Positions 3,357 to 61,168 of a stretch of 64,000 bases of DNA are shown in pieces. Every line of letters begins with the position of its first letter. Positions within the stretch are counted from its first letter, which is position 1. The position numbers were made by a program, and so were the translations under genes. The notes beneath the pieces were generated by a model. It saw nothing but the letters and a program-made list of their open reading frames with translations. It did not search any database and was not told the origin of the DNA. The stretch comes from Clostridia bacterium (GTDB taxonomy: Bacteria; Bacillota; Clostridia; UMGS1883; UMGS1540): NCBI GenBank assembly GCA_045531355.1, contig JAZSDW010000053.1, positions 85-64,084 on the forward strand, in the 5' to 3' direction.

Positions 3357-3464
3357 ATTTTTCACTCCTACTCAATTTTTCTATTATTTTACACCAAAAA
3401 GGCCTTAAAATCAAGTGAAATTTGAAAAAAAGAGAAAATGTGGGAAATTTTCTGGAAACGGTGC

Positions 3465-4579: not shown

Positions 4580-4585
4580 AGGAAA

Positions 4586-4830
4586 AAAGCGAGGAACGGG
4601 AGAGTAACCGGAAGGTACCTTTTCGAGAGAGAAAACGCCGTGGGCTGGAAGCGTTTTTAAGGGAAATCCGGCGAAGTTCACCCGGGAGCTGCACCCTTGA
4701 AAAAGGAGTAGGGGGTGCCGGAAGAGGCCCGTCAGCCTTTTATGAAGCGCCTGCCAAAACGAGGTAGGAACTAGGGTGGTACCGCGGAAGAAATTTCGTC
4801 CCTTACAAGAAATTGTGAGGGACTTTTTTT
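4586..4830 (+). promoter_or_regulatory. T-box riboswitch leader (tRNA-Phe responsive) with intrinsic terminator
   Basis: The conserved T-box sequence AACTAGGGTGGTACCGCGG lies at 4769-4787. A terminator hairpin GTCCCTTA...TGAGGGAC at 4797-4823 is followed by a T7 run. A UUC-containing loop sits in the 5' stem region, and the element is directly upstream of pheS. Confidence 0.75.
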
Positions 4831-12247: not shown

Positions 12248-12778
12248 ATGTATACATTTACGGAGCCGTCCGAGGTCAAGCTGATTATTCTGTATATCAT
12301 TGAAAATTTTGGCGAGGCCATTGACAACGGACAGATTACCGATTTATTTATGGACTACGAATTTGTAGATTATTTTACAATGCAGCAGTATCTGGACGAG
12401 CTGGTTGCCATGAAGCTTGTGGAAATGGATACGCCGGACGGCCTGCGCCTTTATTTTCTAACGGCGCACGGGCGGGAAGCGTATGATGCGTATATGAAAA
12501 ATATCCCGCTTTCCGTGCGGGAAAAACTGCTTTCCGGCATCAAGGCGTATAAGAAAAAGGAACGGCGGGAAAACGACATTTCCGCGTCCTTCCGCCAGAT
12601 TAACGAGCTATCCTATGCGGCAGAGCTTTCCATCCGCGAAAGCGGGTTTCCGCTACTGGACATCCGCCTTTGCGTAGGCAGCAAAGAAACGGCGCGGGCG
12701 GTGTGCCAGCGGTTTAAGGAAGACCCGCAAAAATCTTATGAAGCACTTCTTCAAAGTTTAATAGACGAAGAGAAATAA
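12248..12778 (+). CDS. conserved hypothetical protein (DUF4364-like)
   Basis: 176 aa. The start abuts the stop of the loader gene. Family assignment is from memory only. Confidence 0.45.
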   Translation: MYTFTEPSEVKLIILYIIENFGEAIDNGQITDLFMDYEFVDYFTMQQYLDELVAMKLVEMDTPDGLRLYFLTAHGREAYDAYMKNIPLSVREKLLSGIKAYKKKERRENDISASFRQINELSYAAELSIRESGFPLLDIRLCVGSKETARAVCQRFKEDPQKSYEALLQSLIDEEK

Positions 12779-12833: not shown

Positions 12834-15305
12834 CTATTTTGTAGCGACCAGAATCCGGATTTTTCCGCCGGAAGCAGGCGTTTTATCGTAGTAGGCGCGG
12901 ATGGTGTAGGCGGAAGCGTCTATATCTGCAATCTGTTTTTGCATATAGGTATAGTCGCTGTTTTTGACATAGAGAACGGCGTCTTGTATGGGATAAAAAG
13001 TTCCGTCAGCGAGGCGAATTTGGCTATCCGTCAGGACTGTTACTATGCCGGAAAGCATAGTCAGACGCGAGATGCTCTGTATCTTGCCATTGCTTTGACT
13101 AAACCGGGCCGGTGCACCGGAGCCGACAGAAAAGGCGTGGCCGTTTGTTTGCAAAACGCCGGGCGTACTGCCGATAATATACTCGTAGGCGCCGGAAACA
13201 GAAAGGCCAAGGGAACGGGTTTCGGCCTTTGTCACAATGCCGTATTGATGCAGGTCGCCGGTTACATCGGAAAGAAAGAGTGCGGAAATCCGGTTTTTAC
13301 TATCACGCGCGGCATAGAGGATTTGGCTACTGGTTAGCTTGACGCCGTCCAGCCGTTGCAAAAAGACAGAGCCGGTTATCCCAGCAGTCAAGGTATCCGG
13401 TGCATAGACCTCTACAATGTTTATCGAGGGGGAGAGCGCAAGACCGCCGAGCGTCAGCGCGTCGGCATCTATCGTGCCGGACAGGCTGTTTCCTTCTATA
13501 AGCTTTGCGATGGCCTTTCCATTGGAGAAGGAAAGCGACACCACGCGGTTTAAAAGTGTATCATAGTCCTGTGCGGCTTCAAAGGCATGCACCTTACCTT
13601 CTGCGTCGGTCAGGGAAAGGGTATAGCCGGTATAGGTGTCTCCCCATTCTGTTTCATAGGTCGCAGTACCTGCTGCGGACAAGATACCGACCATATTCGC
13701 GCTTGCGTCCACAGGCAGTACATCGGCCACGGCGCCGGTACGGCCCAAAAGAAGCGTGACCGTATCCCCAAAGGCAAAGTCCCCACCGGTAGCCAGCTTG
13801 TGGAAGGCCGTGAGACTTTCAATGGCGTACTCTTTTCCGGAAACGGTGACCGTATTGGGTGCATCTTTGGAGGGCGATGCGGCTTTATAGATGCCCTGTA
13901 CTGTATCCGTATACGCCAACAGCATGTCGAGCGTCTCCGCATAATAGAGAATGTCATAGGTTTCAATTTCGTTCGGCGTTATCTTTCTGCCGTCGCGCAG
14001 AATGAGCGTAGAGGCTGAAATCGGGAAGGCGGATTGCCAGGATTCGTTTAGCACCGTAAAGGGCTCGGAAAAACCATCAGACGAGAGTACAACATAGTCG
14101 ACCTTCTGTTTCGCATCGTAAACAATATTTAAAAGGTCGCCCATTTTAAGGCTGGCTTTGGAAAGCGTTCCAACACGCGTCTCATTTTCGTAAAGCGGAA
14201 CGCCGTCGGAAAGAGGAATTTTTTGGAGTGAGCCGTCCTTGTAGGTGATGATTCCATCCTCTAAAACAGAATATACTGCTACTGTTTCAACCAAGAGCGT
14301 GGTATTTTCCGAATGACGCGGGTTTTGTAAAAGGGCATATTCCGCCACATCGCTTTGCCCAAAAAAGACGGTGAAGGTGGCACCGACCTCTGCTTCGGAT
14401 GCAATTTGACTATAGGGCGTGATGCCGGATTTGAAATAGACAGGCATATTCGCCGCCCAGTTATACGCCTTTCCTTCCAAAAGGAGGGCGCTTCCGGCCG
14501 TGCCGGTGACAGGGAAAGCGCATACCTGCTGCGTATCCGGTACAAAGGCGACTATGGTGTCTTTGTTCTTGATAAAGAGCTTGCCGGATCTCCCCACCCA
14601 ATCTGCGCGGAAGGCTTCGCCCTTTTTGTAGGTGCCCGCTGAGGTCAGAACGCGTCCGTCACTTATCGTGCTATCTTCTGCGCTTGTGGCCTGAATCACT
14701 GCATCTTCATAAGCGGTACAATCTAAAAGTGTGACATATTCCGTTAAAGAACCTTTTATGGGCGTTCCAAGAAGGTTATATAAAAGCGTGACGGCATCAC
14801 CCCGCGGAAGCGGCGCATCATATGCAAGCTGGATGCCGGTAAGCAGGCCGATATCCTCGGCAAGCGTCATATGTCCCCGGGGCCACGCGGCACCGAAATC
14901 GCTGCTTGCGTATCCTAAAAGCCGCAGGAAAACGGCCGTCGCTTCCGCATAAGTGATGGGGGCATCAGGACGGAAAGTGGAATCGAGATACCCGGTGACA
15001 TACCCTTTTTGGGCCGCAAGATGGATATAGGGGGCTGACCAGAGCGTGTGGGGCACATCGGAATAGGGGGACACGGCGAGAGCGGCAGAAACGGCCTTCC
15101 GGTTTTCAGAAGCGGCTACCGCAATTTTTGTAAATTCCGCACGCGTCAAGAGTGCCTCCAGTCGGTAGGTACCATCTTCATAGCCATCTAAGATAGAAAG
15201 CTGATTCAAAAGCAGTACCCGTCCGTCCGGCGATTCTGCCAGGGAAGCGATGCTGGGGCAGCACAGACAAACAACGAGGAATAGGAGCAAAAGTTTTTTA
15301 AACAT
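12834..15305 (-). CDS. SLH-domain cell-wall-anchored protein, large (823 aa)
   Basis: Signal peptide MFKKLLLLFLVVCLCC followed by three SLH repeats (FTKIAVAAS..., YIHLAAQKGYVTGY..., FRPDAPITYAEATAVFLRLLGY). The C-terminal ~600 aa is uncharacterised and beta-rich. The gene starts 30 bp after the upstream ABC permease and has its own RBS. Confidence 0.8.
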   Translation of the reverse strand: MFKKLLLLFLVVCLCCPSIASLAESPDGRVLLLNQLSILDGYEDGTYRLEALLTRAEFTKIAVAASENRKAVSAALAVSPYSDVPHTLWSAPYIHLAAQKGYVTGYLDSTFRPDAPITYAEATAVFLRLLGYASSDFGAAWPRGHMTLAEDIGLLTGIQLAYDAPLPRGDAVTLLYNLLGTPIKGSLTEYVTLLDCTAYEDAVIQATSAEDSTISDGRVLTSAGTYKKGEAFRADWVGRSGKLFIKNKDTIVAFVPDTQQVCAFPVTGTAGSALLLEGKAYNWAANMPVYFKSGITPYSQIASEAEVGATFTVFFGQSDVAEYALLQNPRHSENTTLLVETVAVYSVLEDGIITYKDGSLQKIPLSDGVPLYENETRVGTLSKASLKMGDLLNIVYDAKQKVDYVVLSSDGFSEPFTVLNESWQSAFPISASTLILRDGRKITPNEIETYDILYYAETLDMLLAYTDTVQGIYKAASPSKDAPNTVTVSGKEYAIESLTAFHKLATGGDFAFGDTVTLLLGRTGAVADVLPVDASANMVGILSAAGTATYETEWGDTYTGYTLSLTDAEGKVHAFEAAQDYDTLLNRVVSLSFSNGKAIAKLIEGNSLSGTIDADALTLGGLALSPSINIVEVYAPDTLTAGITGSVFLQRLDGVKLTSSQILYAARDSKNRISALFLSDVTGDLHQYGIVTKAETRSLGLSVSGAYEYIIGSTPGVLQTNGHAFSVGSGAPARFSQSNGKIQSISRLTMLSGIVTVLTDSQIRLADGTFYPIQDAVLYVKNSDYTYMQKQIADIDASAYTIRAYYDKTPASGGKIRILVATK

Positions 15306-19877: not shown

Positions 19878-19953
<76 letters not shown>

Positions 19954-43565: not shown

Positions 43566-45188
43566 ATGCTTTGCAGACTAGCGATATCCAATATAGCTGT
43601 AATAGAGAAAGCGGAAATTACTTTCGGGGAAGGCTTTACGGTGCTGACAGGCGAAACCGGTGCCGGTAAGTCGCTTATTATGGATGCCATTACGATGGTT
43701 CTAGGCGGCAGAACCGGGCGAGATATCATTCGCGCCGGGCAGAAATGTGCAATTTGCGAAGCTGCGTTCTTTGGACCGCATCCGCTTGCGGACGAGACGG
43801 AGATGCTACTTCTTCGGCGCGAGCTCTACGCGGACGGGCGGAATTTGTGCAGCATTAACGGCAATATGGTAACGGTGGCGGGGCTTCGGGAAGCTGCAGA
43901 ACCGCTTCTGGCGATGCACGGCCAGCACGATACGGAGCAGCTTTTGCATAAAAGCAGCCATCTTATTTATGTAGACAAGTTCGCCCATGCCGATGCCGAG
44001 CGGGAGGTATATACGCAGCTTTATGCAGAAAAAAAGCGGCTTCTCGCTGAAATCGATGCGCTGGAGGCAGACGCGGGTGAAAAAAGCCGGCGGCTGGAGA
44101 TGCTTACCTTTTGGACAGAGGAAATCCGTGCCGCGGCGCCTGTGCCGGGCGAGGACACAGAACTTGAGGGAAAACGCGAGATTTTACGGCATAGTGAAAC
44201 CATTCGCCGCGCGGCAATGGGCGGATATATGGCGCTTTGTGGGGAAGACGCCGCGGCGCGTGACAGCCTTTCTGCGGCTGCAAGGGCGCTGGACGGCGGC
44301 GGTGTACATGATGCACGGCTTATGGAAGCAGCCGAAAAAATCCGCGACGCACAGTATCAGATTGAAGAGATTGCGGCGCTTCTTTTCGACATCAGCGAAG
44401 AGGAGCACAATGGGGCGGCGCTGGAGGAAATTGAAGACAGACTTGATGTTTTGCAGAAATTAAAGCATAAATACGGTGGCAGTATCGAAGCGGTGCTCCG
44501 CTATGCAGACGAGGCAGAGGAAGAAAAGGCGCGGCTGGAAACGGCGGATGAAACACTTGCTGCGTTACAGATTTCTCTGGCTGAAACAGAGAAAAAGCTT
44601 ATGGAAGCGGCAAAAGCACTTTCGGCAAAACGCGCGATTGCGGCCGGAAAAATTGCAGATGCGGCGGAAAAAGAGCTTAAGGCGCTGGATATGGAAAAGG
44701 TTCGGTTTTCTGTTTCCGTGCAAGAAAAGGCGTATGGCGAAACCGGGGCGGACGAGGTGGAGTTTTTCATTTCCACCAATCCTGCGGAAGGCGTAAAGCC
44801 GCTTTCTAAAATTGCGTCGGGCGGCGAGCTTTCGCGCGTTTGCCTTGCTTTGCAAACGGTGCTGGCAGAAAATGCTATAGCCCCGCCGGCTGTTATGATT
44901 TTTGATGAGATTGATACCGGAATCAGCGGACGCGCGGCGCAGAAAACCGGTGAAAAGCTACGGGCGCTTGCGAGAAACCGGCAGATTCTTTGTGTGACGC
45001 ACCTGCCGCAGATTGCCGCAAAAGCTGATGCGCAGTTCCTGATTGAAAAGAAAGAAAAGGATGGTGGATTTTCCACCATGGTTCGGCCGCTGGATAAGGC
45101 TGGACGCATTGAGGCTATCGCCCGCATGATAAGCGGAGACAGTTTAACAGATAAAACAAGGGAAACAGCGGAGGAAATGCTGAAATAA
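43566..45188 (+). CDS. recN: DNA repair protein RecN
   Basis: 540 aa. Walker A GETGAGKS at the N-terminus, long coiled coils, and signature/Walker B (SGGELSRV...IFDEIDTG) at the C-terminus. Confidence 0.9.
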   Translation: MLCRLAISNIAVIEKAEITFGEGFTVLTGETGAGKSLIMDAITMVLGGRTGRDIIRAGQKCAICEAAFFGPHPLADETEMLLLRRELYADGRNLCSINGNMVTVAGLREAAEPLLAMHGQHDTEQLLHKSSHLIYVDKFAHADAEREVYTQLYAEKKRLLAEIDALEADAGEKSRRLEMLTFWTEEIRAAAPVPGEDTELEGKREILRHSETIRRAAMGGYMALCGEDAAARDSLSAAARALDGGGVHDARLMEAAEKIRDAQYQIEEIAALLFDISEEEHNGAALEEIEDRLDVLQKLKHKYGGSIEAVLRYADEAEEEKARLETADETLAALQISLAETEKKLMEAAKALSAKRAIAAGKIADAAEKELKALDMEKVRFSVSVQEKAYGETGADEVEFFISTNPAEGVKPLSKIASGGELSRVCLALQTVLAENAIAPPAVMIFDEIDTGISGRAAQKTGEKLRALARNRQILCVTHLPQIAAKADAQFLIEKKEKDGGFSTMVRPLDKAGRIEAIARMISGDSLTDKTRETAEEMLK

Positions 45189-47083
45189 TGGCAGTTTTAC
45201 AAGTACAGAATCTTGCAGTTGGTTTTGGCGAGCGAACGATATTTTCATCCGTCAGCTTCCAGGCAGAAGCGCAGGATAAAATTGGAATTATTGGCGGGAA
45301 TGGCGTGGGGAAAACCACGCTTTTTCGCGTGATAACCGGTGCGGTGCGTGCAATGGAGGGGCAGGTGGCTCTGGCGGGAGACTGCAAAATCGGCTATCTC
45401 GAGCAGCACGCCATGGCCGATAGTGATGAAACGCTCTACGAAGCCGTCGAATCGGTATTTGCGCCGCTTTATGAGATGGAAAAGGAACTTGCCGCTATTG
45501 CGGAGGCGATTGACAGAGGCGAGAATCTTGAAAAACTGACGGCGCGCCAGCATGTATTGACAGAAAAGTATCAGGATAGCGGTGGACTTACTTATAAAAA
45601 TCGCTGTCGCGCAGCGCTTTTAGGCGTAGGGTTTACGGAGGAGATGCTCGCGCGTCCTGTGCGCGTGCTTTCCGGTGGCGAGCGGACGATGGCGAGCCTT
45701 GTGCGCCTTCTCTTAAGCGATGCCAATCTAATTCTGCTCGATGAGCCGACGAACCACCTCGACATGGAGGCGTGCGTGTGGTTGGAGGAATATTTAAGGG
45801 CGTGGCGCGGCGCCGCGCTGATTGTATCGCATGACCGCTATTTTTTAGACCGCGTTACAAACAAAACGGTGCTTTTATCCGGCGGTCGCTGCACCTGCTT
45901 TTCGGGCGGCTATACGGAATTTATGAAAAAGCGTGAGGCGGAATATGCCTTTGAAAAACGCCAGTATCAAAAGAAGCAGCAGGAAATCCGCCGCATTGAG
46001 GGGATTATTGAAACGCAGCGGCGCTTTAACCGCGAGCGGAATATCCGCATGGCGGAAAGCAAGCAAAAACAGATTGACCGCATTGCGCAAACGATGGAAG
46101 AACCGCCGGAGGACGAAAAAGGTATTTCGTTTTCCTTCCGGCCGGCAAAGGATAGCGCGCATGAAGTGCTGCGAGCGGACAGGATTTCAAAGGCTTTCGA
46201 CGGCGAGACATTGTTTAGAGGGATTGACCTTAAAATTTTTAAAAACGAACGCGTGTTTTTACTCGGCCGAAACGGATGCGGCAAAACGACGCTCTTTTCC
46301 ATTTTGCGTGGCGTGCGGAAGCCGGATAGCGGCATGGTGACAATTGGAAACCGTGTGGAAATTGGCTATTATGACCAGACACAGAGCGACCTTGCGCCGC
46401 AGAAGACGGCACTGGAAATTGTGCGGGATGCCTTTCCGCAAAAAACGGAGACGGAGCTTCGCTCGGCACTGGCGGCGCTGGGGCTGCGCGGGGAGGCGGT
46501 GCACGAGACAATCGGTACACTTTCCGGCGGCGAGCGTGCAAAGGTGGCGCTGACGCGGCTTTTGCTCGGAGCGCCGAATTTTCTTCTCCTGGACGAGCCG
46601 ACGAACCACCTCGACATTGATGCCAAGGAAGCCCTTGAGACCGCGCTGCTTGCCTATGGCGGCACGCTGCTTGCCATTTCGCATGACCGCTATTTTATCA
46701 ATAAGCTTGCAAGTCGGGTTGTAACACTTTCTGAAGATGCCGTCAAAAGCTATGACGGAAACTATGCGTATTACCTTGAAAAACGGGAAACGGCACCGCC
46801 GCGAGAGGCTTGCGCGGCGCCGAAAAAGGAAAATACCTACCGCGAGGAAAAGGCCATGCGCGCAGAAATCCGAAAGAAGAAAAATCGCTATGAGAAGCTA
46901 GAGGGAGAAATCACCAAAACAGAAGCGGCGATTGCCGAAAAGCAAACGCTCCTTTCGGCGGCCGGCTCTGATTACCAGAAGGCCATGACGCTTTCAAGTG
47001 AGATTGAAGACCTGGAAGAAAAGCTGGGGGCGCTTTATACCGAGTGGGAAAGTGTTGCTACGGAACTCGAAGCAGAAGAATAA
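45188..47083 (+). CDS. ABC-F family ATPase (tandem NBDs, no TMD; Uup/YdiF-like)
   Basis: 631 aa. Two NBDs (GGNGVGKTT / LSGGERTM / LLDEPTNHLD and GRNGCGKTT / LSGGERAK / LLDEPTNHLD) plus a C-terminal coiled-coil extension. The start overlaps the recN stop. Confidence 0.85.
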   Translation: MAVLQVQNLAVGFGERTIFSSVSFQAEAQDKIGIIGGNGVGKTTLFRVITGAVRAMEGQVALAGDCKIGYLEQHAMADSDETLYEAVESVFAPLYEMEKELAAIAEAIDRGENLEKLTARQHVLTEKYQDSGGLTYKNRCRAALLGVGFTEEMLARPVRVLSGGERTMASLVRLLLSDANLILLDEPTNHLDMEACVWLEEYLRAWRGAALIVSHDRYFLDRVTNKTVLLSGGRCTCFSGGYTEFMKKREAEYAFEKRQYQKKQQEIRRIEGIIETQRRFNRERNIRMAESKQKQIDRIAQTMEEPPEDEKGISFSFRPAKDSAHEVLRADRISKAFDGETLFRGIDLKIFKNERVFLLGRNGCGKTTLFSILRGVRKPDSGMVTIGNRVEIGYYDQTQSDLAPQKTALEIVRDAFPQKTETELRSALAALGLRGEAVHETIGTLSGGERAKVALTRLLLGAPNFLLLDEPTNHLDIDAKEALETALLAYGGTLLAISHDRYFINKLASRVVTLSEDAVKSYDGNYAYYLEKRETAPPREACAAPKKENTYREEKAMRAEIRKKKNRYEKLEGEITKTEAAIAEKQTLLSAAGSDYQKAMTLSSEIEDLEEKLGALYTEWESVATELEAEE

Positions 47084-51795: not shown

Positions 51796-51825
51796 ATTGA
51801 CAAGAAAATACGGCGTGTGGTATAC
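51796..51825 (+). promoter_or_regulatory. near-consensus promoter of the giant NTPase cassette (TTGACA, 18-nt spacer, extended -10 TGGTATACT)
   Basis: TTGACA at 51796-51801, TATACT at 51820-51825, and TG at -15/-14. Confidence 0.55.
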
Positions 51826-51883
51826 TCTGTTTAAAGAATAAGAGTACGGAAGCGCTATTTATTGTTTGGGAAGCAGCTTTGGA

Positions 51884-51919
51884 AAACTGCCGGACAAATT
51901 CTTTGCCCGGCAGTTTTTT
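51884..51919 (+). terminator. perfect 10-bp hairpin plus T-run between the promoter and the giant-gene start codon (leader attenuator or end of a small RNA)
   Basis: AAACTGCCGG-ACAAATTCTTTGC-CCGGCAGTTT followed by TTTCG. It sits about 60 nt downstream of the -10 and about 30 nt upstream of the ATG at 51951. Confidence 0.5.
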
Positions 51920-51950
51920 CGTAGATAAAAGAAGGAAGGGAACGATCAGG

Positions 51951-54900
51951 ATGCACAATGCCGGAAACGCAGAATACATGCAAAAACTATTCGATCTTAT
52001 GGGCAAGACGGCGAAGATAGAAAGAACGGACGGACAAGTGCTGGAAGGCGTTGTGCGCAGTGTCTCGCTTGACGGGGCGGAGCTTCTACAGGACGGGGCT
52101 GTCGTGGCGATTTCGTTTGACGAGATGAAGACGCTCCATGTCCCTGAAGCAGAGAAAAAGGCGGAAGCGGATTTCAAAGCCAATGCGCTTGAAAATTTAA
52201 TTTTATCGGGGCCGGCAGGAAAGGTGCAGGCAATTTTAAAAAATGCTAATTTTTGTAAAAAAGTCGGTCTTTCGGCGAAAGAAGCCGACGAAATTTTGGA
52301 GCGTATTCAAAAGGGAAAACTCCCGTGGGATATGGATCCATGCTCCATGGCCTTCCGGTATCGCGTGCTTTTGAGGGAAAAGGGGAATCCGGAAAACATA
52401 GAGGCGCTCTATAGGAAAGCTATCGAAAATGGCTCGCCGTCTAAGGCGGTGGCGATTTTAGAGCTGCTTCGCCTTTACATAAAGAAAGAAGCGTATTTAG
52501 AAGCGGCTGCACTTTACGAACAGGAGGCGGCTTTTTTAGGCGAGGAAGCATATGCACATATGACGGCGTATGGCACGGCTTTGGCGCATACAAAAGGAAA
52601 AGCGGCGTTGGAGGCGTTTTTAGCGGCGCATCCCGATTTACAAACCTATTCGACAAACAAAAACTATTTCCAGAAGCTTTTGCAAAAGCTGGAGGAAGAG
52701 GCCGGGATGGAAGCGGCGGAAGCGTTGCCGGAGGCGAACTTTACAGAGGAGCCTGTCCGCGTATGGCGCCGCGCAGATTATATGCGAAGAGCCGCGAAAA
52801 GCGGGCAAGAGGATGCGTATCTTGCCTTTTATCAGTTTTTGTATGAAACCGGCGAGAGCGATGCGCCAATTTTGGCGGCATTGATGCTGCATAGCAGCCG
52901 GATCTGGACCTCTGCAAAGGCCAGAGAGGATTTCCGCACGCTTTGCCGTGCACACTATCCAACAGATGTAGAGACGAGTCTTGCCGGTGCTTTTTCCGAA
53001 GTGCTCACAGGGGCAGACCCCGAAGCCGGTATCCGCTTTCTGAAAAAGTGGCACCCCATTATGGCGGGCGAGCAGGATACGGCACTGAAGATATTAAACC
53101 GCGAAGGGCATGATGCGGAAAGTCCGGAAATCGTGGCGGCGATGGTCGGCGCCTGTCAAATGCCGGAAGCGTGGAGACGCCTTCGGACATTTTATCAGTA
53201 TAAAGGAATCGAGTGCGAGGGCAACATTTTGTATGCTATCGCGTATTATAGCCCAAATGCGCAGGATTTGTACCTTTTGCAAACCTTTGCAAGAGAAAAC
53301 GGGCAAGCTGTGCTCGGGACGAGTGCGGCAATGCTTCGTATGTCCCGGGATGTACATAATCCCGTTACAGTGCGAAATGCCTGCCAAAGTCTTGTAAGTC
53401 TAGGCGAAGCAGATGCGCCGGTTCCTGCGGCGACGGCGGAAAGCTTTTTCCGAACGCTTTCAGCCACGGCGGACAAAAATCCGGCTTTCGCGGTGGAAAT
53501 TCTCCATGCCGGGCAGCAGTTTGCCTTGCGTCGGGGCGAGACGGAGGCGTTTATAGCGGCCTGTGGGTCCAATCTTTCCAGGGCGCCGAAAAGCTTTGCG
53601 GTGTTTGCGCTGGAGGCTTATCGTATTTGTCCGGAAGAAGAAGAAACCATGCAAATGACAAAGCACCTTCTGGAAACTGCGCCGTCTTTTCGCGGCAAAG
53701 TGCCCACACAGGCGCTTTTAGAAAATCCGGAGTCCCTGTCGAAAAAAGGGGCGGAGAGTCATCTTGCGAGGCAGCTGATTCGCATGCTTACCGGCCTAAA
53801 TGTGCGAAAAATGTACGAAATGATTACCGAGGCGGTTGCCGACCCTGCAGAGACGGGGCTTTCGTCTGCCATTGAAGGCGGGCGTTTGCTGCTTGCGCAT
53901 TTCCCAGGGGAGGGACTTTTATTTGAGGCCATGTATTATTTGCTCGCGGCACGGGGCGATATGGGAGATGCCGCAGAGATGTATACGATGTTGTATCAAT
54001 ATCTGACCAATACGAAAAATGAGCCGAATTTGTTCGTGCATTACGCAAAACGGCTATACTGCGGCCTTGTTTATTTGGAAAGAAAGGGCATAGAGATTAT
54101 AGATGCACCAAAGGATGCAGCTGCACTTTTAAGGTTTTTTGAGCGGGGGAATACAGATGCAACGCTTGCAGAAGAATTTTCCGCTTTCCGGCATCGCGTT
54201 TTGATGCTGGATGGGGAACCAGCGCGTTTTTCGGCGCTTTTGTTTGCTGGCCTCACCGGCACCTGGAAGCCGTTTATGGATTTGTCGGTAGAAGAGACCG
54301 ACGGGACTTTTTTGACAACCGAAACCGACATGTTCATGCACGAGGTGGGGCGGTATAATTTCCTGCGAAGCCTTGCAGCAAGGATTCTGGAAAATGAAGA
54401 GTGGCAGCATTTTATCGGCCTTTTAACCGAAACAGAGCGTGCACAGATTGAGGCGGTGGAGGCCACTGGCTATGGTGAGGCCGAAAAACGGATGGCTCTC
54501 TCACTTTTGCGGTGCAAGATTTTAGATAAAACGGGGAGTGAGTTTCTGGCAGAAAAGATTTTTGCCACAACTTCACCGGAAACCTTCGGCGCGCTTTTAC
54601 CGGTTGTGCGGACGCTGATGCTAGACAGCGTGCTCATTGAAGGTATGCGCAAGGTGCCTGCCGCGTTTTTGGAGGAAGCAGCACGGACTGTGATGGAACA
54701 AAAGGAAACGGTGCCGCATCAGATTTTAAATAAGACCTACCGCGACTTTTTGCGGGCCTTTTCCAACCTTCTTTTCTCGCGCGGCCTTTACAAGGAAGCA
54801 GACCCTATTTTGGGACTTCTTTTTACGACCGACGAGAGCGCGTATCGGCATAGCCCCGAAAACCGATATGCAAATTTAACACATGCCATCTGCCGGCAGC

Positions 54901-57563
54901 GGCAAAAATTCTGTAAGCTTGTATGCCGCGATCCGGAAGAAGTAGAAAAGTTTCATACCACAACGGAATATAAAAAGCTGATTAACATTTTTGCGGTACA
55001 ATTCGCTTCCGACCGGCAGAGGGATTGGGCAAAGATTGCGCCGCTGATGACGGTTTTGCAAAAGCGGCTTTGCGCCGGGATTTACTATGTCCTTGTTGGC
55101 AAAGGCGAGGAATTTGAAGCGCAGGCGCTGGCAATACAGGCGCAGAATCCCGCTATGGCGGAGGCGCTCTTTTACTATGCGGAGCGAAAGTTCCGCGATG
55201 CACGCTGGCGGGAAAGATGCCGGCAGTATCTGCCGCCGACGCGTGACGACGAAGAGACGATGTATTTTATGAGCCCCAAAGAGCATGGAAGCGTGCGCCG
55301 TCTCCCGATTTTAGAGATTTTAGAGCTCGGCGAAAACCCGGCAGATGGTGCTGAAGCGGGCGGCGCAGCCGTAAAGCCTGCGACAGGTGGCGAAAAAATC
55401 CGCCGTGCCATCCGCGGAGAGGAATTTCTGGAAATGGCACTTGGAAAGTATGTACTTTCGTTTGCTACGGAAACGGAAGCGCTTATGCCCTGCCGCGAAG
55501 CGTTGCCGCTTTATATGAATGAACCGACGATTGAAAACGGCGTAGCGGTTCTTCGTGCGAAGGACTTTCTGGACACGGCCGATGCCCTTCTTCGGGCGTT
55601 TTACGCAAACTTTGCGCTTTATATTTATAAGGAAGCGGAGAATATGGATGATCACGAGGCATGCTTTGCCTTTGTGCCGGATCTTTTGACCTGTCTCTCG
55701 GCAGTTTCGGCAATTCCGCCGCATTCTGCTGAACTTTTCGACGATGTGATTCGCAGTATTTTAATGCGCTTTGAAAGCTTTGAGGATTATAGACGCTACT
55801 TTTTAAAGCATGCAGGACACATCAGCAAGCTTTTACAAAGCGCAGATGCAGAAGCCATCCGCGATGTTGAGCTTTACTTTGCCGTTGCAAAAAACATTCT
55901 GGATATGGAGGAAAACTGGGACGGCGAAACGAAACTGGGAATAATCCGCGAGCAGAACAGGCTGATTGCGGCGCATGGTGCAGGTGTGGACGAGGCGTTT
56001 GTTTCTGATTTAATCCTGAAGGTCGGCGAAGTGGAGGATTTCTTAAAGGACCAGCCGCTTCTGACAATTCACATTGACCAGGAGACGCTTTCTGCAGGGA
56101 GCCCCCTGACCGGTTATATCGAAAACAGTGGCCACGCGGCGGCGGAGAAGGCGATTTTAAAATTTACGGCGGCCAGCGGCGAAACGAGGACCGTGCAGAT
56201 GCGCACCTTGTTTGGAGATTACCACGCGCCCTTTGCATTTCCGCTGGTGAAAGAGGCGGGAGAAAGCATTTCGGGCACGCTTTGTGTGAGCTATATCTGG
56301 AATGAGGAAGAAAGAAGCCTTACAAAGCGCGTGGGAGAGATTCCGGTTCTGCCGCGTGCGGCGTTCCCTTTAAATACGATGCCGGGCTTTGCTATTCCGG
56401 TCTCTGAAACGGAAAAATATTTTATTGGCCGGACAGAAGAAATCGAGAGCTTCAAAAATGAATTTTACACGCTTAAAGCGGGCGAAGACGGCGAAGTTGT
56501 CCGCGAAGTCCGGGACCCGAAAGAGGTGCCGGTCATGGTTGTGAACGGCCCGAAGCGCGTCGGGAAATCTTCTCTTTTGCACCGTGTGGAAAAAATCGTG
56601 GAAACCTTGCCTTCGCATTGGGTATATGTCCATTTTGATGCCCAGGGGGTGCGGTCGCTCCACGAAGCCTTTGTCAAGGGCTTTTATATGAGCTGGAAGA
56701 TAGACGGCGTGTCTATTGACGAGATGGAGGCGTACGAGAAGGTGCGGCATCTCGAGCCGGCGGAGGACGCACAGATAAGCGCTTTGGAACTTGGACGGTA
56801 TTATGCGGCTTGCCGCGATGTCTTTGCACCGGGGAAGCAGATTTTGTTCCTGATTGACGAGATTGAGGCTGTTATCCGGCACACCACGCCGGAAAATCTG
56901 TTCAACATGCTGCAATTTGCCATGAAAAACTTAAACGATGTGATAAGCTTCCTCATCTGCGGCTCGGACGATCTGACAAATCTCATGTTTGAAATGGAGA
57001 ACAAAACGCAGTTTTTCCAGCTCGCCAAAAATTTCCCTGTCGGGAAAATGCCGCGGCATGAATACGATGCACTTTTAGATGCGTTCTCTGTGCGAACCGG
57101 CCTTGTGCCGGATGTGCAGGCGCGGGAGGCACTGTGGCTTTTGACGCGCGGGCAGATTTATTATACGCACCTCATTTTCAATAAGCTTGTTGATTTATAT
57201 CGCGCAGAGCCTGTGCGCTGCACGCGGTGCGACATGCGCCTTTACGATGTCTATTTCGCGTTTGATGCTTTACAAAGCGGAAGTGAGATGTTCTCCGGAC
57301 TTACCGGGATGTTTGATCATTACCAGTCCGGCGAAAAAGAGGTAATTGCCTGTATTGCCCAACATGCGCCGGCGCCGTCTGCGGGGCTTCGTCTTGAGGC
57401 GATTCAAAGGCGCTGCACGGTGCCGGATGTAGAAAAGGCACTCTCGCGGCTGGAGGCAAGAGGCTTTGTCCGTCTCCAGGGCGGACACTATATGATGTCC
57501 TCGGAAATGTATCGCGTAGCGTTTGGCAAATATGCGGCCGCCGCGCTTTACTTCAGAGAATAG
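51951..57563 (+). CDS. giant (1,870 aa) alpha-helical-repeat protein with a C-terminal ORC/Cdc6-like 'archaeal-type' P-loop NTPase and winged-helix domain
   Basis: Start at the ATG at 51951 after a GAAGGAAGGG RBS; the ORF-track start at 51879 lies inside the leader hairpin. About 70 aa of beta-rich N-terminus, then about 1,400 aa of TPR/HEAT-like helical sequence. The C-terminal module has FIGRTEEIE, Walker A VMVVNGPKRVGKSSLL (nt ~56545-56580), Walker B ILFLIDEIE (nt ~56841-56867), an LTRGQIYYTHL motif, and a wH-like tail. Confidence 0.75.
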   Translation: MHNAGNAEYMQKLFDLMGKTAKIERTDGQVLEGVVRSVSLDGAELLQDGAVVAISFDEMKTLHVPEAEKKAEADFKANALENLILSGPAGKVQAILKNANFCKKVGLSAKEADEILERIQKGKLPWDMDPCSMAFRYRVLLREKGNPENIEALYRKAIENGSPSKAVAILELLRLYIKKEAYLEAAALYEQEAAFLGEEAYAHMTAYGTALAHTKGKAALEAFLAAHPDLQTYSTNKNYFQKLLQKLEEEAGMEAAEALPEANFTEEPVRVWRRADYMRRAAKSGQEDAYLAFYQFLYETGESDAPILAALMLHSSRIWTSAKAREDFRTLCRAHYPTDVETSLAGAFSEVLTGADPEAGIRFLKKWHPIMAGEQDTALKILNREGHDAESPEIVAAMVGACQMPEAWRRLRTFYQYKGIECEGNILYAIAYYSPNAQDLYLLQTFARENGQAVLGTSAAMLRMSRDVHNPVTVRNACQSLVSLGEADAPVPAATAESFFRTLSATADKNPAFAVEILHAGQQFALRRGETEAFIAACGSNLSRAPKSFAVFALEAYRICPEEEETMQMTKHLLETAPSFRGKVPTQALLENPESLSKKGAESHLARQLIRMLTGLNVRKMYEMITEAVADPAETGLSSAIEGGRLLLAHFPGEGLLFEAMYYLLAARGDMGDAAEMYTMLYQYLTNTKNEPNLFVHYAKRLYCGLVYLERKGIEIIDAPKDAAALLRFFERGNTDATLAEEFSAFRHRVLMLDGEPARFSALLFAGLTGTWKPFMDLSVEETDGTFLTTETDMFMHEVGRYNFLRSLAARILENEEWQHFIGLLTETERAQIEAVEATGYGEAEKRMALSLLRCKILDKTGSEFLAEKIFATTSPETFGALLPVVRTLMLDSVLIEGMRKVPAAFLEEAARTVMEQKETVPHQILNKTYRDFLRAFSNLLFSRGLYKEADPILGLLFTTDESAYRHSPENRYANLTHAICRQRQKFCKLVCRDPEEVEKFHTTTEYKKLINIFAVQFASDRQRDWAKIAPLMTVLQKRLCAGIYYVLVGKGEEFEAQALAIQAQNPAMAEALFYYAERKFRDARWRERCRQYLPPTRDDEETMYFMSPKEHGSVRRLPILEILELGENPADGAEAGGAAVKPATGGEKIRRAIRGEEFLEMALGKYVLSFATETEALMPCREALPLYMNEPTIENGVAVLRAKDFLDTADALLRAFYANFALYIYKEAENMDDHEACFAFVPDLLTCLSAVSAIPPHSAELFDDVIRSILMRFESFEDYRRYFLKHAGHISKLLQSADAEAIRDVELYFAVAKNILDMEENWDGETKLGIIREQNRLIAAHGAGVDEAFVSDLILKVGEVEDFLKDQPLLTIHIDQETLSAGSPLTGYIENSGHAAAEKAILKFTAASGETRTVQMRTLFGDYHAPFAFPLVKEAGESISGTLCVSYIWNEEERSLTKRVGEIPVLPRAAFPLNTMPGFAIPVSETEKYFIGRTEEIESFKNEFYTLKAGEDGEVVREVRDPKEVPVMVVNGPKRVGKSSLLHRVEKIVETLPSHWVYVHFDAQGVRSLHEAFVKGFYMSWKIDGVSIDEMEAYEKVRHLEPAEDAQISALELGRYYAACRDVFAPGKQILFLIDEIEAVIRHTTPENLFNMLQFAMKNLNDVISFLICGSDDLTNLMFEMENKTQFFQLAKNFPVGKMPRHEYDALLDAFSVRTGLVPDVQAREALWLLTRGQIYYTHLIFNKLVDLYRAEPVRCTRCDMRLYDVYFAFDALQSGSEMFSGLTGMFDHYQSGEKEVIACIAQHAPAPSAGLRLEAIQRRCTVPDVEKALSRLEARGFVRLQGGHYMMSSEMYRVAFGKYAAAALYFRE

Positions 57564-57579
57564 GAAAGGACGGGAGAAG

Positions 57580-58932
57580 ATGAGAAATCCGTTTGAAGGC
57601 GAAAGCTATTATACGGCAAAACGCGAAAAACTCAGGGAGCGGATGGATGACTGGATGGAACTGGCGGAGAAAAACCATGCCGCAGTTTGCTGCGGCATCT
57701 ATGGACTTGCAGGCACGGGGAAAAGCCGGTTTTTGCAGAGTTACTTTACAGAGGAAAAAAGAATGGAGCTCGCAGCGCGTGGCCAGCTTTATCCTATGGT
57801 AATTGCGGCCGTGGAACCGGATCCGGAGCAGATGTTCGACGAGATACAGATGTCCATCGCCGCGTATGCAGAAAAATATGTGCCGGCAGAAAAATGCCCC
57901 GCGTTTCCAACGGCCGCAGAGGAGCCGGTCAGCCAGTACCGCCTGAAAAAAACGGTGCGCCTTTTGCGGGCAGCCGGCTACAGGGTGTCGGTAGTGATTG
58001 ATGAGTTTCACCGGATTTCCCAGAGCGAAACGCTTGGGAAAGGGCATTATGATGCGTTCCGCAGGCTATATGCGGATCCGGAAACCCATATGCGGTATGT
58101 GGTGGCGACGGATAGCGATTTCGACCCTGGTAACCGTACACACGCCGAGACTTTTACCACTTCCTTTTTCGTACATATTTTTGAGTCCAGCTTCATAACG
58201 GCAGGGGGCCTTAGCCGCGAGGAATGCACACGGTTTTTAGAAGGCTTTTTATGGGGCGGCGAAACGCTACCCTTTTCCGACGAAGAGCTGGAACGAATTT
58301 ACACCTTATCCGGCGGCATTCCGGAGCTCGTGCGCCGTGCGGCGAAAAATTTGTTTGACTTAAAGCAGGGCATGGGGGAAGAATCCGAGCTTGAAAAATG
58401 GTTGCTTGAGGATGGTCGCGCACAGATGCAAAGCTGGTCACACACATTGTCCGCGGTGCAGAAGGCGCTTTTAGTTAAAGCGGCAGGCGAGGGCATCAAA
58501 ACCTTCTATGAAGGGAATGAGCATTCGGCAAGCGATATTCTTACAAAACGCGGCTTTTTTTCACAGCGGGGCGAGGGCACAACTTACGGACAGATGCGGA
58601 AGAAACATTTTGTTTGCACCTTGTTCCGGCAATATGCGGAGAAAAATTTTGCGGAAGAGTATGCGTCTATCTATGGCGCCGAGGGGCAGAACCTGCTGGG
58701 GGAGGAACAACGCTTTGTTCTGGAGCTTGTGCGGAAAACGAAACAGGAATATGAGGCAGAGCTCCGCCGGCTTACGGCAGAGGACCGGCGCGTTTTTGCC
58801 ACGCGTCCCCGGCGGGAGCGGGACTACGAAAAGCTATGCAAAATGGAAGAAAAGCTGGCGGGCGCACCGCTGGAAACATGGGAAATCCGCACGATAGAGA
58901 TGGAATGCGAAAAGCTGTCGGCGAAATTATAG
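57580..58932 (+). CDS. stand-alone P-loop NTPase paralogous to the C-terminal module of the giant protein (ORC/Cdc6-like 'archaeal ATPase' type)
   Basis: 450 aa from the ATG at 57580. N-terminal NPFEGESYYTAKREKL, Walker A GIYGLAGTGKSRFL, Walker B RVSVVIDEFHRI, and an LSGGIPELV motif. The C-terminal ~150 aa is charged and helical. Confidence 0.7.
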   Translation: MRNPFEGESYYTAKREKLRERMDDWMELAEKNHAAVCCGIYGLAGTGKSRFLQSYFTEEKRMELAARGQLYPMVIAAVEPDPEQMFDEIQMSIAAYAEKYVPAEKCPAFPTAAEEPVSQYRLKKTVRLLRAAGYRVSVVIDEFHRISQSETLGKGHYDAFRRLYADPETHMRYVVATDSDFDPGNRTHAETFTTSFFVHIFESSFITAGGLSREECTRFLEGFLWGGETLPFSDEELERIYTLSGGIPELVRRAAKNLFDLKQGMGEESELEKWLLEDGRAQMQSWSHTLSAVQKALLVKAAGEGIKTFYEGNEHSASDILTKRGFFSQRGEGTTYGQMRKKHFVCTLFRQYAEKNFAEEYASIYGAEGQNLLGEEQRFVLELVRKTKQEYEAELRRLTAEDRRVFATRPRRERDYEKLCKMEEKLAGAPLETWEIRTIEMECEKLSAKL

Positions 58933-58941
58933 GAGAAAACG

Positions 58942-59421
58942 ATGAATAAAAGCATGATGGAAGAACTTCGGGCAAGCCGGTGGGACCTATACAGACGGCA
59001 GCCGCTTTTTTGGCGGTTGCTTTGCTCGCTGGCGTGGCATGACCCGGATTACAGTATGTTTATCGCCGGTATTTTGTCCGGCTTTCCGGCAACCTTCCTT
59101 TTAAATTTGGTTACAATGCAATTTTCAGAAATCCGCCGTCCGGCCCTTTATATGTCCTTTTATGCTGTGTGCATGGTTTGCTCGGTGGTGTTCTGCTGGG
59201 CGGGCTTCCGGCTCTCTGTTCTGCACGCCGAGGTGCACCGGAAAGCGCAGAAAATGGCTGAAAAAGGATTTGGAACGAGCGAGGAAAAACGAAATGAGCT
59301 TGTTGTTGCCTTCGCGGCGCTCTATCCGGAGAAAATCCGGAAAAATGCGATATTTTTCTTCGTAAGTGCAGCGGTGACAGTCCTTTCCATTGTGGCGATT
59401 TGCCTTGTGCAGATTCTGTAA
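58942..59421 (+). CDS. small polytopic membrane protein (159 aa, 3-4 TM), third gene of the cassette
   Basis: Hydrophobic segments LFWRLLCSLAW, FIAGILSGFPATFLLNLV, LYMSFYAVCMVCSVVFCWAGF and IFFFVSAAVTVLSIVAICLVQIL. It starts 10 nt after the preceding stop and has an AGGAG RBS. Confidence 0.6.
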   Translation: MNKSMMEELRASRWDLYRRQPLFWRLLCSLAWHDPDYSMFIAGILSGFPATFLLNLVTMQFSEIRRPALYMSFYAVCMVCSVVFCWAGFRLSVLHAEVHRKAQKMAEKGFGTSEEKRNELVVAFAALYPEKIRKNAIFFFVSAAVTVLSIVAICLVQIL

Positions 59422-59443
59422 ATTAAAAATTTTCAAAAAAAGC

Positions 59444-59472
59444 TTGACAAAGACCGGGAAAGTGTGTATACT
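59444..59472 (+). promoter_or_regulatory. promoter of the ylxM-ffh operon (TTGACA, 17-nt spacer, TATACT)
   Basis: Hexamers at 59444-59449 and 59467-59472. Confidence 0.55.
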
Positions 59473-59520
59473 CTTTATCTGTAAACGATTTTTACTTTAC
59501 ACCTAAAGGAACGGGTGCAC

Positions 59521-59850
59521 ATGAAAAAGAATCTGAGTGCCGGCTACCTTCTCGATTTTTATGGCCCGCTTTTGACCGGGCGGCAACGGGAAGCGCTGGA
59601 TATGTATTATAATATGGATTGCTCGCTGGCAGAAATTGCAGAAACCTTCGGCGTCACGCGGCAAGGTGTGCGCGGCTTTATTCTGCAAGGGGAAAAGCGG
59701 CTTTTGGAAATGGAAGCGGCCATTGGCCACGCGGCGCTTTATCAGGCTGCGGCAGAGATGCTTCCGGCCGCAGAGGAAGGCGGCGAACGGCTCCGGAAAG
59801 CGGCAGAAGTTTTGCGGGCATGTCTGGAAAGGGAAACGGATGGCGTTTGA
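59521..59850 (+). CDS. ylxM: YlxM/UPF0122 putative DNA-binding protein upstream of ffh
   Basis: Start at MKKNLSAGYLLDFYGPLLT. HTH-like segment CSLAEIAETFGVTRQGV. The position is conserved before ffh. Confidence 0.75.
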   Translation: MKKNLSAGYLLDFYGPLLTGRQREALDMYYNMDCSLAEIAETFGVTRQGVRGFILQGEKRLLEMEAAIGHAALYQAAAEMLPAAEEGGERLRKAAEVLRACLERETDGV

Positions 59851-61168
59851 AAGCTTAGGCGAGAAACTACAGAATGTGTTTAAGTCGCTTCGCGGCAAAG
59901 GGCGCGTGAGCGAAAAAGATATTAAGGATGCCATGCGGCAGGTGCGTCTGGCTCTTTTGGAGGCGGATGTTAATTTCAAGGTGGCGAAGGATTTTATCGA
60001 GGCCATTCGGGAGAAGGCGCTGGGAACAGATGTTCTGGAGAGTCTGACGCCCGGGCAGCAGATTATCAAAATCGTCCGGGATGAGCTGGTGGAGCTGATG
60101 GGCGGTGCGCAGGCAAAGCTTGCCGTATCCTCAAAGCCGCCGACGGTTCTGATGATGGTAGGCTTAAACGGTGCCGGTAAAACAACGACGAGTGCAAAGC
60201 TCGCCGGCCTTTTGAAAAAACAGGGCAAGCGGCCGATCTTAGCCGCGTGCGATGTCTACCGGCCGGCGGCGGTAAAGCAGCTGATGGTCGTAGGCGAGCA
60301 GGTGGGCGTGCCGGTGTTTGCAAAAGAAGGGGCTACGGACCCTGTGGAGATTGCAAAAGAAGCCGTCTTGGGGTGCGATACTTCGCGCTTTGACACGGTA
60401 ATTTTAGATACAGCGGGGCGTCTGCAGGTAGACGAAGCGCTGATGGATGAGCTGGTGCGGATGAAAGCGGCGGTGCATCCAACGGAAATTCTACTGGTTG
60501 TAGACGCGATGACCGGGCAGGACGCAGTGAACATCGCAGAGGGTTTTGCTTCGACCGTTGGTATTGACGGCGTGATTCTGACAAAGATGGATGGCGATAC
60601 CCGCGGCGGCGCAGCGCTCAGCGTCAAGGCCACTTGCGGCGCGCCGATTAAATTCTCCTGTATAGGCGAAAAATTGCAGGATATTGAGCCGTTTTATCCG
60701 GACAGAGTGGCTTCCCGCATTCTGGGCATGGGCGATATGCTCACGCTGATTGATAAGGCGCAGGAAGCGTTTGACGAAAAGAAGGCCGCGGCGCTGGAAC
60801 AAAAAATCCGGCAGCAGCGGTTTGACTTACAGGATTTTCTTGACCAGATGGAGCAGATGAAGGGCATGGGGCCCCTCTCCGGGCTTGCACGGATGCTGCC
60901 GGGCGTAAATGCCAAGGCGCTTGAAGGCGCGCAGATTGATGACCGGCAAATGGAGCGCACGGCGGCGATTATTAAATCAATGACGAAGCGTGAGCGGGAA
61001 AATCCCCAAATTATGGATGCTTCCAGGAAACGGCGCGTTGCCGCCGGAAGCGGAACACAGGTGCAGGACGTAAACCGGCTTTTAAAGCAGTTTGATGATA
61101 TGCAGAAGCTGATGAAGCAGTTTATGGGCAAAGGGAAAAAGCATAAGCGGTTTCCCTTTGGGTTATAA
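59840..61168 (+). CDS. ffh: signal recognition particle protein Ffh
   Basis: Start at MAFESLGEKLQNVF; the ATG at 59840 overlaps the ylxM 3' end. GTPase motifs (GLNGAGKTTT, DTAGR, TKMDGD) and a Met-rich M-domain. The ORF-track start at 59636 is an upstream in-frame extension. Confidence 0.95.
   Translation: MAFESLGEKLQNVFKSLRGKGRVSEKDIKDAMRQVRLALLEADVNFKVAKDFIEAIREKALGTDVLESLTPGQQIIKIVRDELVELMGGAQAKLAVSSKPPTVLMMVGLNGAGKTTTSAKLAGLLKKQGKRPILAACDVYRPAAVKQLMVVGEQVGVPVFAKEGATDPVEIAKEAVLGCDTSRFDTVILDTAGRLQVDEALMDELVRMKAAVHPTEILLVVDAMTGQDAVNIAEGFASTVGIDGVILTKMDGDTRGGAALSVKATCGAPIKFSCIGEKLQDIEPFYPDRVASRILGMGDMLTLIDKAQEAFDEKKAAALEQKIRQQRFDLQDFLDQMEQMKGMGPLSGLARMLPGVNAKALEGAQIDDRQMERTAAIIKSMTKRERENPQIMDASRKRRVAAGSGTQVQDVNRLLKQFDDMQKLMKQFMGKGKKHKRFPFGL

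Follow-up and report, generated by a model that had tools for sequence, protein, structure and literature searches.

We analysed a 64,000-nt stretch of DNA from a Clostridia bacterium (GenBank assembly GCA_045531355.1, contig JAZSDW010000053.1, positions 85–64,084 of the forward strand; hereafter, the window) and describe in it a rare three-gene operon of a kind not previously characterised, which most likely belongs among conflict modules centred on a nucleoside triphosphatase (NTPase). The cassette comprises three intact plus-strand open reading frames (ORFs) separated by gaps of 16 and 9 nt: gene 1 (51951–57563, ATG start) encodes a giant cytoplasmic protein of 1,870 aa, gene 2 (57580–58932) a 450-aa ATPase, and gene 3 (58942–59421) a 159-aa membrane protein. 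We favour, with a probability of about one half, the reading that the cassette is an ATP-dependent conflict module of the anti-invader, abortive-infection type, with an undescribed architecture and swappable effectors. Among the readings considered, an NTP-dependent conflict system fits the anatomy of the locus best, given the variable sensor end, the conserved switch, the obligatory paralogous partner, and the putative effectors, which are interchangeable. The support for a conflict role is circumstantial and comes from effector-like variation in the wider family, evolution faster than that of the flanks, variation in the copy number of a module in the giant protein, and rarity.

Two Paralogous ATPases of the Cassette

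The C-terminal region of gene 1 had been described in a first-pass annotation of the window as a P-loop ATPase related to ORC/Cdc6 followed by a winged helix, and our data support this assignment. The ATPase module occupies aa ~1483–1780 (56397–57290, plus strand) and contains the FIGR helix, Walker A at G1533–S1540 (K1539), Walker B at D1636–E1637, and the ICGSDD, TQFFQL, and LTRGQ motifs. The longer motifs FIGRTEEIE, GPKRVGKSSLL, ILFLIDEIE, and TRGQIYY are present and conserved among orthologues, in whose alignment F-[IV]-G-R-x-x-E-I, GPKRVGK[ST]S, I-D-E-I-E, ICGSDDL, TQFFQL, G-x-M-P-x-x-E-Y, L-T-x-G-Q, and a C-terminal R-L-x-A-R-[GT]-F ... SEMYRV block are invariant. As for an arginine finger or sensor-2, reading of the alignments revealed no invariant arginine between ICGSDD and TQFFQL of gene 1 or in the expected segment of gene 2. 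The winged-helix-like domain at aa ~1790–1860 (57318–57530, plus strand) was identified from a single-sequence AlphaFold2 (AF2) model and from the hhalign alignment with the winged helix of gene 2. The last ~70 residues form an H-H-H-E-E unit with a predicted local distance difference test score (pLDDT) of 70–88 and are the sole confident part of the model of the C-terminal 501 aa, which is otherwise unusable (mean pLDDT 40.7).

All Pfam matches of gene 1 fall below threshold and lie at aa 1502–1678 (AAA_14, 23 bits; ATPase_2, 18.6 bits; AAA_22; AAA_16). The gathering score of PF01637 (ATPase_2), 33.2 bits, is reached neither by gene 1 nor by gene 2 (24.1 bits); the orthologous giants score 18.7–26.4 bits over profile positions 23–224 of 225, and the best relative, P0022, scores 32.0 bits. 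A profile of 12 giant ATPases matches the solved PF01637 member 2fna_A motif by motif over 230 positions (E 3.2e-4), followed by Cdc6 (7jgr_G, E 1.8e-3) and 2qen_A (E 0.016). Of the PF01637 membership put forward earlier, the near full-length match in motif order and the detectable similarity to solved members thus stood, and the formal Pfam assignment did not.

Gene 2 carries Walker A at G42–S49 (K48), Walker B at D141–E142, an SGGIP motif, a lid, a winged helix at aa ~313–356, and C-terminal coiled-coil helices at aa 368–449; its motifs NPF, GLAGTGKS, VVIDEFH, and GGIPELV are conserved among orthologues. In the AF2 model built from seven sequences (pLDDT 72.6), an AAA+ base and a lid are accompanied by further helices, a winged helix, and a pair of long helices at the C-terminus. 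The best fold match of this model is archaeal Orc1/Cdc6 (score 14.1), with eukaryotic ORC/Cdc6 next in rank and TnsC at 12.1; further matches are ZAR1 (10.7), BrxC (10.3), MalT (9.3), RdrA (8.9), 2qen (8.8), and also NRC2. The Orc1/Cdc6-like fold, with ZAR1, BrxC, MalT, and RdrA as immune relatives among its matches, counts in favour of the conflict reading.

Both proteins retain the Walker A lysine and the Walker B D-E pair. Comparison of the gene 1 ATPase with gene 2 by BLAST revealed no similarity, and hhalign with thin profiles gave a probability of only 2%, a value superseded by richer profiles. When 51 giant C-termini were aligned with 15 partner N-termini, the profile–profile probability was 99.3% (E 7.8e-21) over 293 columns extending from Walker A through the winged helix, and the two ATPases are therefore paralogous, as had been proposed. 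Both belong to the neighbourhood of ORC/Cdc6 and archaeal ATPases (PF01637), below the Pfam thresholds.

Gene 2 also scores 25.4 bits on Pfam TniB, above the gathering score of 22.4 bits, and on this ground the cassette could be regarded as what is left of, or as an accessory to, a target-selection system of the transposon type employing TniB/TnsC/MuB-like AAA+ regulators. We consider this very improbable because the match covers only profile positions 14–133 of 189, the generic Walker A/B part, and because the chromosomal position of the cassette is conserved. Moreover, no TniA/TnsB transposase, TniQ, integrase, or terminal repeats were found in the window or in the related loci read, whether inside or beside a cassette.

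Organisation of the Giant Protein

The order of domains in gene 1, with the repeat-containing putative sensor at the N-terminus and the NTPase at the C-terminus, is a conserved hallmark of the family: of the 50 listed relatives with a Walker A, all have this motif 332–402 aa from the C-terminal end except for one protein, which is probably truncated, and the repeats are all N-terminal. Conservation follows the same direction, with identity to orthologues of 27–41% in aa 1–270, the least conserved part, 33–48% in aa 271–1370, and 41–64% in aa 1371–1870.

The protein begins with a small domain (aa 1–70; 52160 is its last position, 51951 its first, plus strand) conserved in six orthologues. Its identification as an Sm/SH3-like beta-barrel is tentative, being suggested by sub-significant matches (SM-ATX, E 0.034 in two of six sequences; an LSM chain, E 1.4). 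It is followed at aa 79–250 (52185–52700, plus strand) by one copy of a helical module of ~150–180 aa. According to a hidden Markov model (HMM) of aa 79–250, the number of copies is one in the window, two in locus L001, four in each of L002, L010, L006, and L018, and zero in L017; the more distant giants, which were outside the HMM training set, have 0–5. The differences in length among the giants of the clade, whose full-length members span 1,743–2,734 aa, correspond to 0–4 copies of this ~150-aa N-terminal module. The shortest giant, that of L017 (49–5280, 1,743 aa), has neither the N-terminal ~70-aa domain nor the repeat module, although its cassette is otherwise complete and keeps its place next to ylxM-ffh, so that the N-terminal parts appear dispensable or replaceable.

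The central region (aa 271–1370; 52761–56060, plus strand) is helix-rich by composition, without a recognisable domain, and conserved in orthologues, with peaks at aa 651–730 and 931–1050; Pfam and PDB sequence searches of it found nothing. The "TPR/HEAT-like" repeats of the first-pass annotation correspond to no Pfam repeat family in gene 1; what stands of that description is a composition compatible with a helix-rich region and the ~150–180-aa module repeated zero to five times in relatives. Between the helical part and the ATPase lies a conserved segment of ~110 aa (aa 1371–1480; 56061–56390, plus strand) that is possibly beta-rich, with strands in a low-confidence model and an enrichment in glycine plus proline and in beta-branched and aromatic residues.

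Interchangeable Parts behind the Partner ATPase

The wider family was collected with phmmer, using gene 1 aa 671–1870 against 1.84 billion representative sequences at E below 1e-3. The search matched 55 clusters, including the query and six full-length orthologues; most of the others are giants of 2,300–3,360 aa, and ~45 further clusters at 50% identity share the giant layout. In the five wider-family loci that we read (L009 and L012–L015), the giant is followed by a partner of 706–827 aa homologous to gene 2, and the pair never adjoins ffh. The L015 partner passes Pfam nSTAND1 (37.8 bits against a threshold of 27.1), a clade defined in counter-invader systems (PMC8195603). Thus, relatives retain the pair of giant and partner and change what comes after the ATPase of the partner.

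The ~200 additional C-terminal residues of the long partners contain an invariant E-x3-[KR] and, ~95 residues later, I-R-N-x3-H (for example, aa ~530–734 of the partner at 10001–12205 of L009). In the alignment of these tails (A3), E54, [RK]58, R152, N153, and H157 are conserved, with RN-x3-H in four of five sequences and R-x3-H in one. HEPN RNases are defined by R-x4-6-H, with a polar residue after the arginine, together with an upstream E-x3-[KR] (PMC3710099); this combination occurs in the partners of the sister clade. The five tails gave no significant HEPN profile match (Pfam DUF4145, E 0.084 in one of five), a PDB profile search with them returned nothing relevant, and three of five weakly match the uncharacterised NCBIfam family HP0729_fam (E 2e-4).

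Gene 2 of the window stops exactly at the point where the HEPN-like domain of the long partners starts, and gene 3 comes instead. Our data support the identification of gene 3 as a small, predicted membrane protein with three transmembrane (TM) helices, in line with the three to four given earlier: the hydrophobic helices at aa 39–57, ~70–94, and 137–155 are conserved in seven orthologues, and the first of them carries the conserved motif F[IV]AG..[SA][GS].PAT. The protein matched no family in Pfam, NCBIfam, PADLOC, or PHROGs, and no homologue of it was found in the distant loci of the wider family. In L012, a third gene (11163–12434) encodes a 423-aa protein with C-terminal TM helices and a PADLOC CorA-like match (E 2.8e-10).

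Neighbours of the mobile-element type, which speak for the conflict reading, were found at two loci, namely HTH_17 and DUF960 genes in L006 and, in L012, a nearby DUF3801 gene at 13711–14085. In L015 (13229–16711), the pilus genes of the Tad/Flp type that come directly after the giant–partner pair (T2SSE, T2SSF, Flp1_like) are probably there by coincidence.

Distribution, Selection, and the Case for a Cellular Role

The three-gene cassette recurs in at least seven distinct loci of related Clostridia, with its genes separated by small gaps or overlapping. It is complete in L001, L002 (also L003–L005), L010, L006 (also L007–L008), L017, and L018, and a partial copy is present in the near relative L016, where the contig begins inside gene 1. 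The short call of gene 2 in L016 reflects the start codon chosen by the gene caller, and a disruption of this gene was rejected. The co-occurrence of the three genes with varying flanks, named in the first-pass annotation as a sign of a module, was thereby observed, and the refuting conditions named there did not come true: six of the seven distinct cassettes lie directly upstream of ylxM-ffh behind three different upstream flanks (YyaL, transglutaminase, and an FeFe-hydrogenase cluster), and the L006 cassette sits elsewhere, adjoining HTH_17, DUF960, and DUF6198 genes. The distribution is very sparse and patchy. Only eight relatives of gene 2 were found among 5.8 billion clustered proteins, and relatives occur in two of 185,579 species representatives, both metagenome-assembled genomes, one from Clostridia and one from Faecousia (Oscillospiraceae).

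The cassette genes diverge two to five times faster than their flanks. Between the window and L001, identity is 53% for gene 1, 54% for gene 2, and 50% for gene 3, compared with 76–80% for YyaL, RimM, and YlxM and 87–89% for Ffh and TrmD; with the more distant cassettes, the values are 35–41%, 41–45%, and 34–41%, respectively, compared with 89–90% for Ffh. The ratio of nonsynonymous to synonymous substitution rates (dN/dS) was estimated against the close relative L016 (87.5% nucleotide identity), using the C-terminal 821 codons of gene 1. It was 0.09 for gene 1 (dS 0.64), 0.07 for gene 2 (dS 0.77), and 0.06 for gene 3 (dS 0.66), with 0.135 for ylxM (dS 0.26) and 0.03 for ffh (dS 0.37). The low values indicate purifying selection on all three genes. 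The genes are thus under constraint and functional, even though they change more rapidly than the genes around them. A pseudogene or an artefact was rejected on the basis of the low dN/dS and of ORFs that are intact in at least eight genomes.

In the same comparison (window positions 55107–60742), the dS of the cassette (0.64–0.77) was roughly double the values for ylxM and ffh next to it (0.26–0.37); weaker codon bias, or a history of recombination distinct from that of the neighbours, could account for this.

Several observations weigh against a conflict role. The G+C content is native, at 0.49–0.54 throughout the cassette and equal to that of the flanks, as the first-pass annotation had stated, and the window flanks are housekeeping genes rather than a defence island. 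None of the components has a match among known or candidate defence families: the sole match in the window to PADLOC-DB v2.0.0 is PDC-S01 (E 1.3e-4), over ~70 residues at the P-loop of gene 1, genes 2 and 3 gave none, and the relatives gave only weak matches to mad8, PtuA, and PDC-S27, apart from the CorA-like match of L012. Plasmids and phages contained no homologues (tblastn and scans of viral_contigs). The HEPN assignment is by motif, concerns the relatives and not the window, and includes one sequence with R-x3-H spacing. Finally, the presence of six of the seven clade cassettes at the same spot upstream of ylxM-ffh suggests that the cassette has long been inherited vertically there and could point to a cellular role.

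Such a role, the main rival of the conflict reading, would be that of a lineage-specific machine outside defence. The giant would serve as a scaffold regulated by ATP or as an organiser bound to nucleic acid, the coiled coil of the partner and the three-TM protein would tether it to the membrane, and it could act in the chromosome, envelope, secretion, or sporulation biology of Oscillospiraceae-like Clostridia. It is the stable position beside the signal recognition particle (SRP) operon that keeps this role alive: the six cassettes share their orientation and lie directly upstream of ylxM-ffh-rpsP-rimM-trmD despite their differing upstream flanks. Purifying selection on all three genes, the native G+C content, the lack of mobility signatures, flanking repeats, and defence-database matches, and the classical role of winged-helix ATPases of the ORC/Cdc6 type as organisers bound to DNA all agree with it. 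We nevertheless regard it as less likely than the conflict reading, since for a cellular function the distribution is extremely sparse, the context of one clade member is different and mobile-element-like, the wider family never lies beside ffh, and the cassette outpaces every flank in evolution. Furthermore, the tails of the partners are replaced between clades (HEPN-like domain versus separate TM protein) and the module copy number varies, both of which are typical of conflict genes. If the cassette does have a cellular role by the SRP operon, it would represent a new giant ATP-regulated scaffold in Oscillospiraceae-like bacteria. Genes of 5.6–10 kb kept intact under purifying selection point to an important function under either reading.

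Overall, of the earlier suggestion that the cassette resembles a conflict or signal-transduction module, the conflict part gains circumstantial support, with the housekeeping flanks and the lack of a match to any known defence system standing against it.

Proposed Model of the Conflict Module

We infer the sensing, assembly, and effector steps of a conflict mechanism as follows. The variable N-terminal modules of the giant would respond to a ligand derived from an invader or to a disturbance in the cell, and this recognition would license the nucleotide-dependent assembly of its ATPase with the paralogous partner, in the way that ORC/Cdc6, TnsC, and STAND ATPases assemble. The two winged helices may put the ATPase assembly on nucleic acid, and the partner ATPase would then engage an effector. 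In the clade of the window, the putative effector is the three-TM protein, which may be reached through the coiled-coil tail of the partner and would cause membrane damage or growth arrest; in the sister clade, this part may fall to the HEPN-like RNase domain that the partner carries as a fusion, supplemented in one locus by the CorA-like membrane protein. Expression may be kept low by a terminator-like hairpin in the leader, described below.

If the conflict reading is correct, the family represents an unrecognised layout of NTPase immunity, with very large single-chain sensors, a C-terminal switch, an obligatory paralogous partner, and effectors that swap between a fused RNase and a separate membrane protein. 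It is restricted to gut Clostridia that are poorly cultured, and defence annotation in its current form misses it. A more far-reaching proposal, which we advance tentatively and with confidence short of even, is that the cassette is the founding example of a new class of prokaryotic immune system, in which a giant "inverted NLR", with variable helical modules at its N-terminal end and the ORC/Cdc6-type ATPase and winged helix at the other, hetero-oligomerises with a paralogous ATPase bearing interchangeable effectors (the three-TM protein in the window; in the sister clade, a HEPN RNase, accompanied or not by a CorA-like channel) and thereby links ORC-type DNA-bound assembly to NLR-type sensing.

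Promoters, Leader, and Surroundings of the Cassette

The first-pass annotation placed the cassette, with its own promoter, between yyaL and the ylxM-ffh cluster, and this layout holds. A TG-extended, near-consensus sigma-70-type promoter-like site, TTGACA-18-TATACT, lies at 51797–51826 on the plus strand (11 of 12 positions match), and its −35 and extended −10 elements are kept in the orthologous locus L001. A second promoter-like site on the same strand (59444–59472, TTGACA-17-TATACT, 11 of 12 positions), predicted to serve the downstream ylxM-ffh operon separately, marks the 3′ boundary of the cassette. The upstream flank encodes an ECF S-component, a type III pantothenate kinase, and YyaL (Thioredox_DsbH, E 1e-75), and the downstream flank encodes YlxM, Ffh, RimM, and TrmD. 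Tandem repeats are absent from the cassette, as are direct and inverted repeats at its flanks, so that neither a mobile-element boundary nor a template of the diversity-generating-retroelement type is evident.

The 120-nt leader contains, 29 nt ahead of the ATG of gene 1, a terminator-like hairpin (51883–51922, plus strand) that has arms of 16 nt and a U run behind it. The leader of L001 has the same layout of promoter, hairpin (~3392–3428), and ribosome-binding site, and the pairing is preserved there by one compensatory change from G:C to A:T; in the more distant loci L002, L006, and L010 the hairpin is absent. An Rfam scan of the leader matched no family. The hairpin could be an attenuator that keeps the operon off or a yyaL terminator lying past the next promoter.

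Another possibility is that the cassette works as MalT/LAL proteins do, as a large regulator of transcription or signalling that binds ATP. The helical region of the giant would sense a metabolite or protein, its terminal winged helix would bind DNA, and the partner and membrane protein would act as co-regulators. Both ATPase proteins do carry winged-helix domains and AAA_16 is among the matches, and signal transduction had been raised in the first-pass annotation. However, the order of domains is the reverse of that in MalT/LAL regulators, the only conserved candidate for a target operon is ylxM-ffh, which has its own promoter, and a regulator has no need of the HEPN-like motifs of the sister-clade partners. 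The giants, at 1,900–3,400 aa, also far exceed known regulators in size. We consider this explanation improbable.

Elsewhere in the window, a T-box leader (4583–4806, plus strand, 133 bits) and a tRNA gene (19881–19953, minus strand) were the only Rfam matches at the gathering score. A 540-aa SMC_N/AAA_23-type ATPase ORF at 43566–45188 is directly followed by a 631-aa ABC-F-type protein at 45188–47083, both on the plus strand and unrelated to the cassette.

Comparison with Known Systems

The cassette had been thought to match no known system, and the PADLOC comparison bears this out for defence systems. A PHROGs search of the cassette gave no match, scans of metagenome_contigs revealed no cassette relatives, and PDB sequence searches with gene 1 and alignments A1–A4 gave nothing significant. 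A word-indexed protein search returned only the query for full-length gene 1 and not even the query for its C-terminal 491 aa, which reflects the sensitivity limit of the tool, since phmmer found 55 clusters. No description of this giant-ATPase family was found in the searchable literature.

RADAR RdrA, also an "archaeal ATPase", differs from the cassette in that no RdrB adenosine deaminase is present, PADLOC gave no match, and the architecture is another. With PF01637 proteins (2fna, 2qen) and archaeal Orc1/Cdc6, the cassette ATPases share the order of motifs: the F-x-G/D-R-E helix, Walker A, Walker B D-E, the h-h-h-G-S-D/E strand, L-x-P-h-s-x-x-E, the lid, and the winged helix. They differ in scoring below the gathering threshold, and by alignment reading no conserved arginine-finger candidate was evident between the GSDD strand and TQFFQL of gene 1. 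In addition, the giants carry 1,500–3,000 aa ahead of the ATPase and have a paralogue as their partner; to our knowledge, neither such a fusion nor such a pairing occurs in PF01637 or Orc1/Cdc6 proteins.

BREX BrxC (with BrxB) and DUF499 proteins resemble the cassette: in each, a winged helix and a coiled-coil extension come after an ORC/Cdc6-type AAA+ domain, and a second STAND/ORC-like protein stands alongside. Both are proposed to scaffold an immune complex, and variants of DUF499 with a HEPN fusion exist (PMC12839542). BrxC, however, has its ATPase at the N-terminal end, and neither PglZ, a methyltransferase, nor other BREX genes were found in the window; no PADLOC BREX model was matched there or in the relatives. 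By analogy of its domains and of its partner, BrxC is the nearest functional analogue of gene 2.

As in STAND and NLR-like proteins (Avs, bNACHT, nSTAND1, and MalT), a P-loop switch and a winged helix are joined in one large protein to a variable region containing repeats; the fold matches include ZAR1, NRC2, and MalT, and one sister-clade partner passes nSTAND1. Two-gene systems with a STAND ATPase in each gene have also been predicted (nSTAND2; PMC8195603). On the other hand, STAND Pfam models matched neither ATPase of the window, gene 1 has G-Q in place of G-x-P, and the giant carries no fused effector domain. The order is also inverted, the repeats being N-terminal and the ATPase C-terminal in the cassette, whereas STAND proteins run from an effector or adaptor through the NTPase to a C-terminal repeat sensor. 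The family stands at the boundary, in both sequence and fold, of ORC/Cdc6 initiators, PF01637 proteins, and STAND/NLR proteins, and it could thus show how NLR-like switches arose from DNA-bound AAA+ assemblies.

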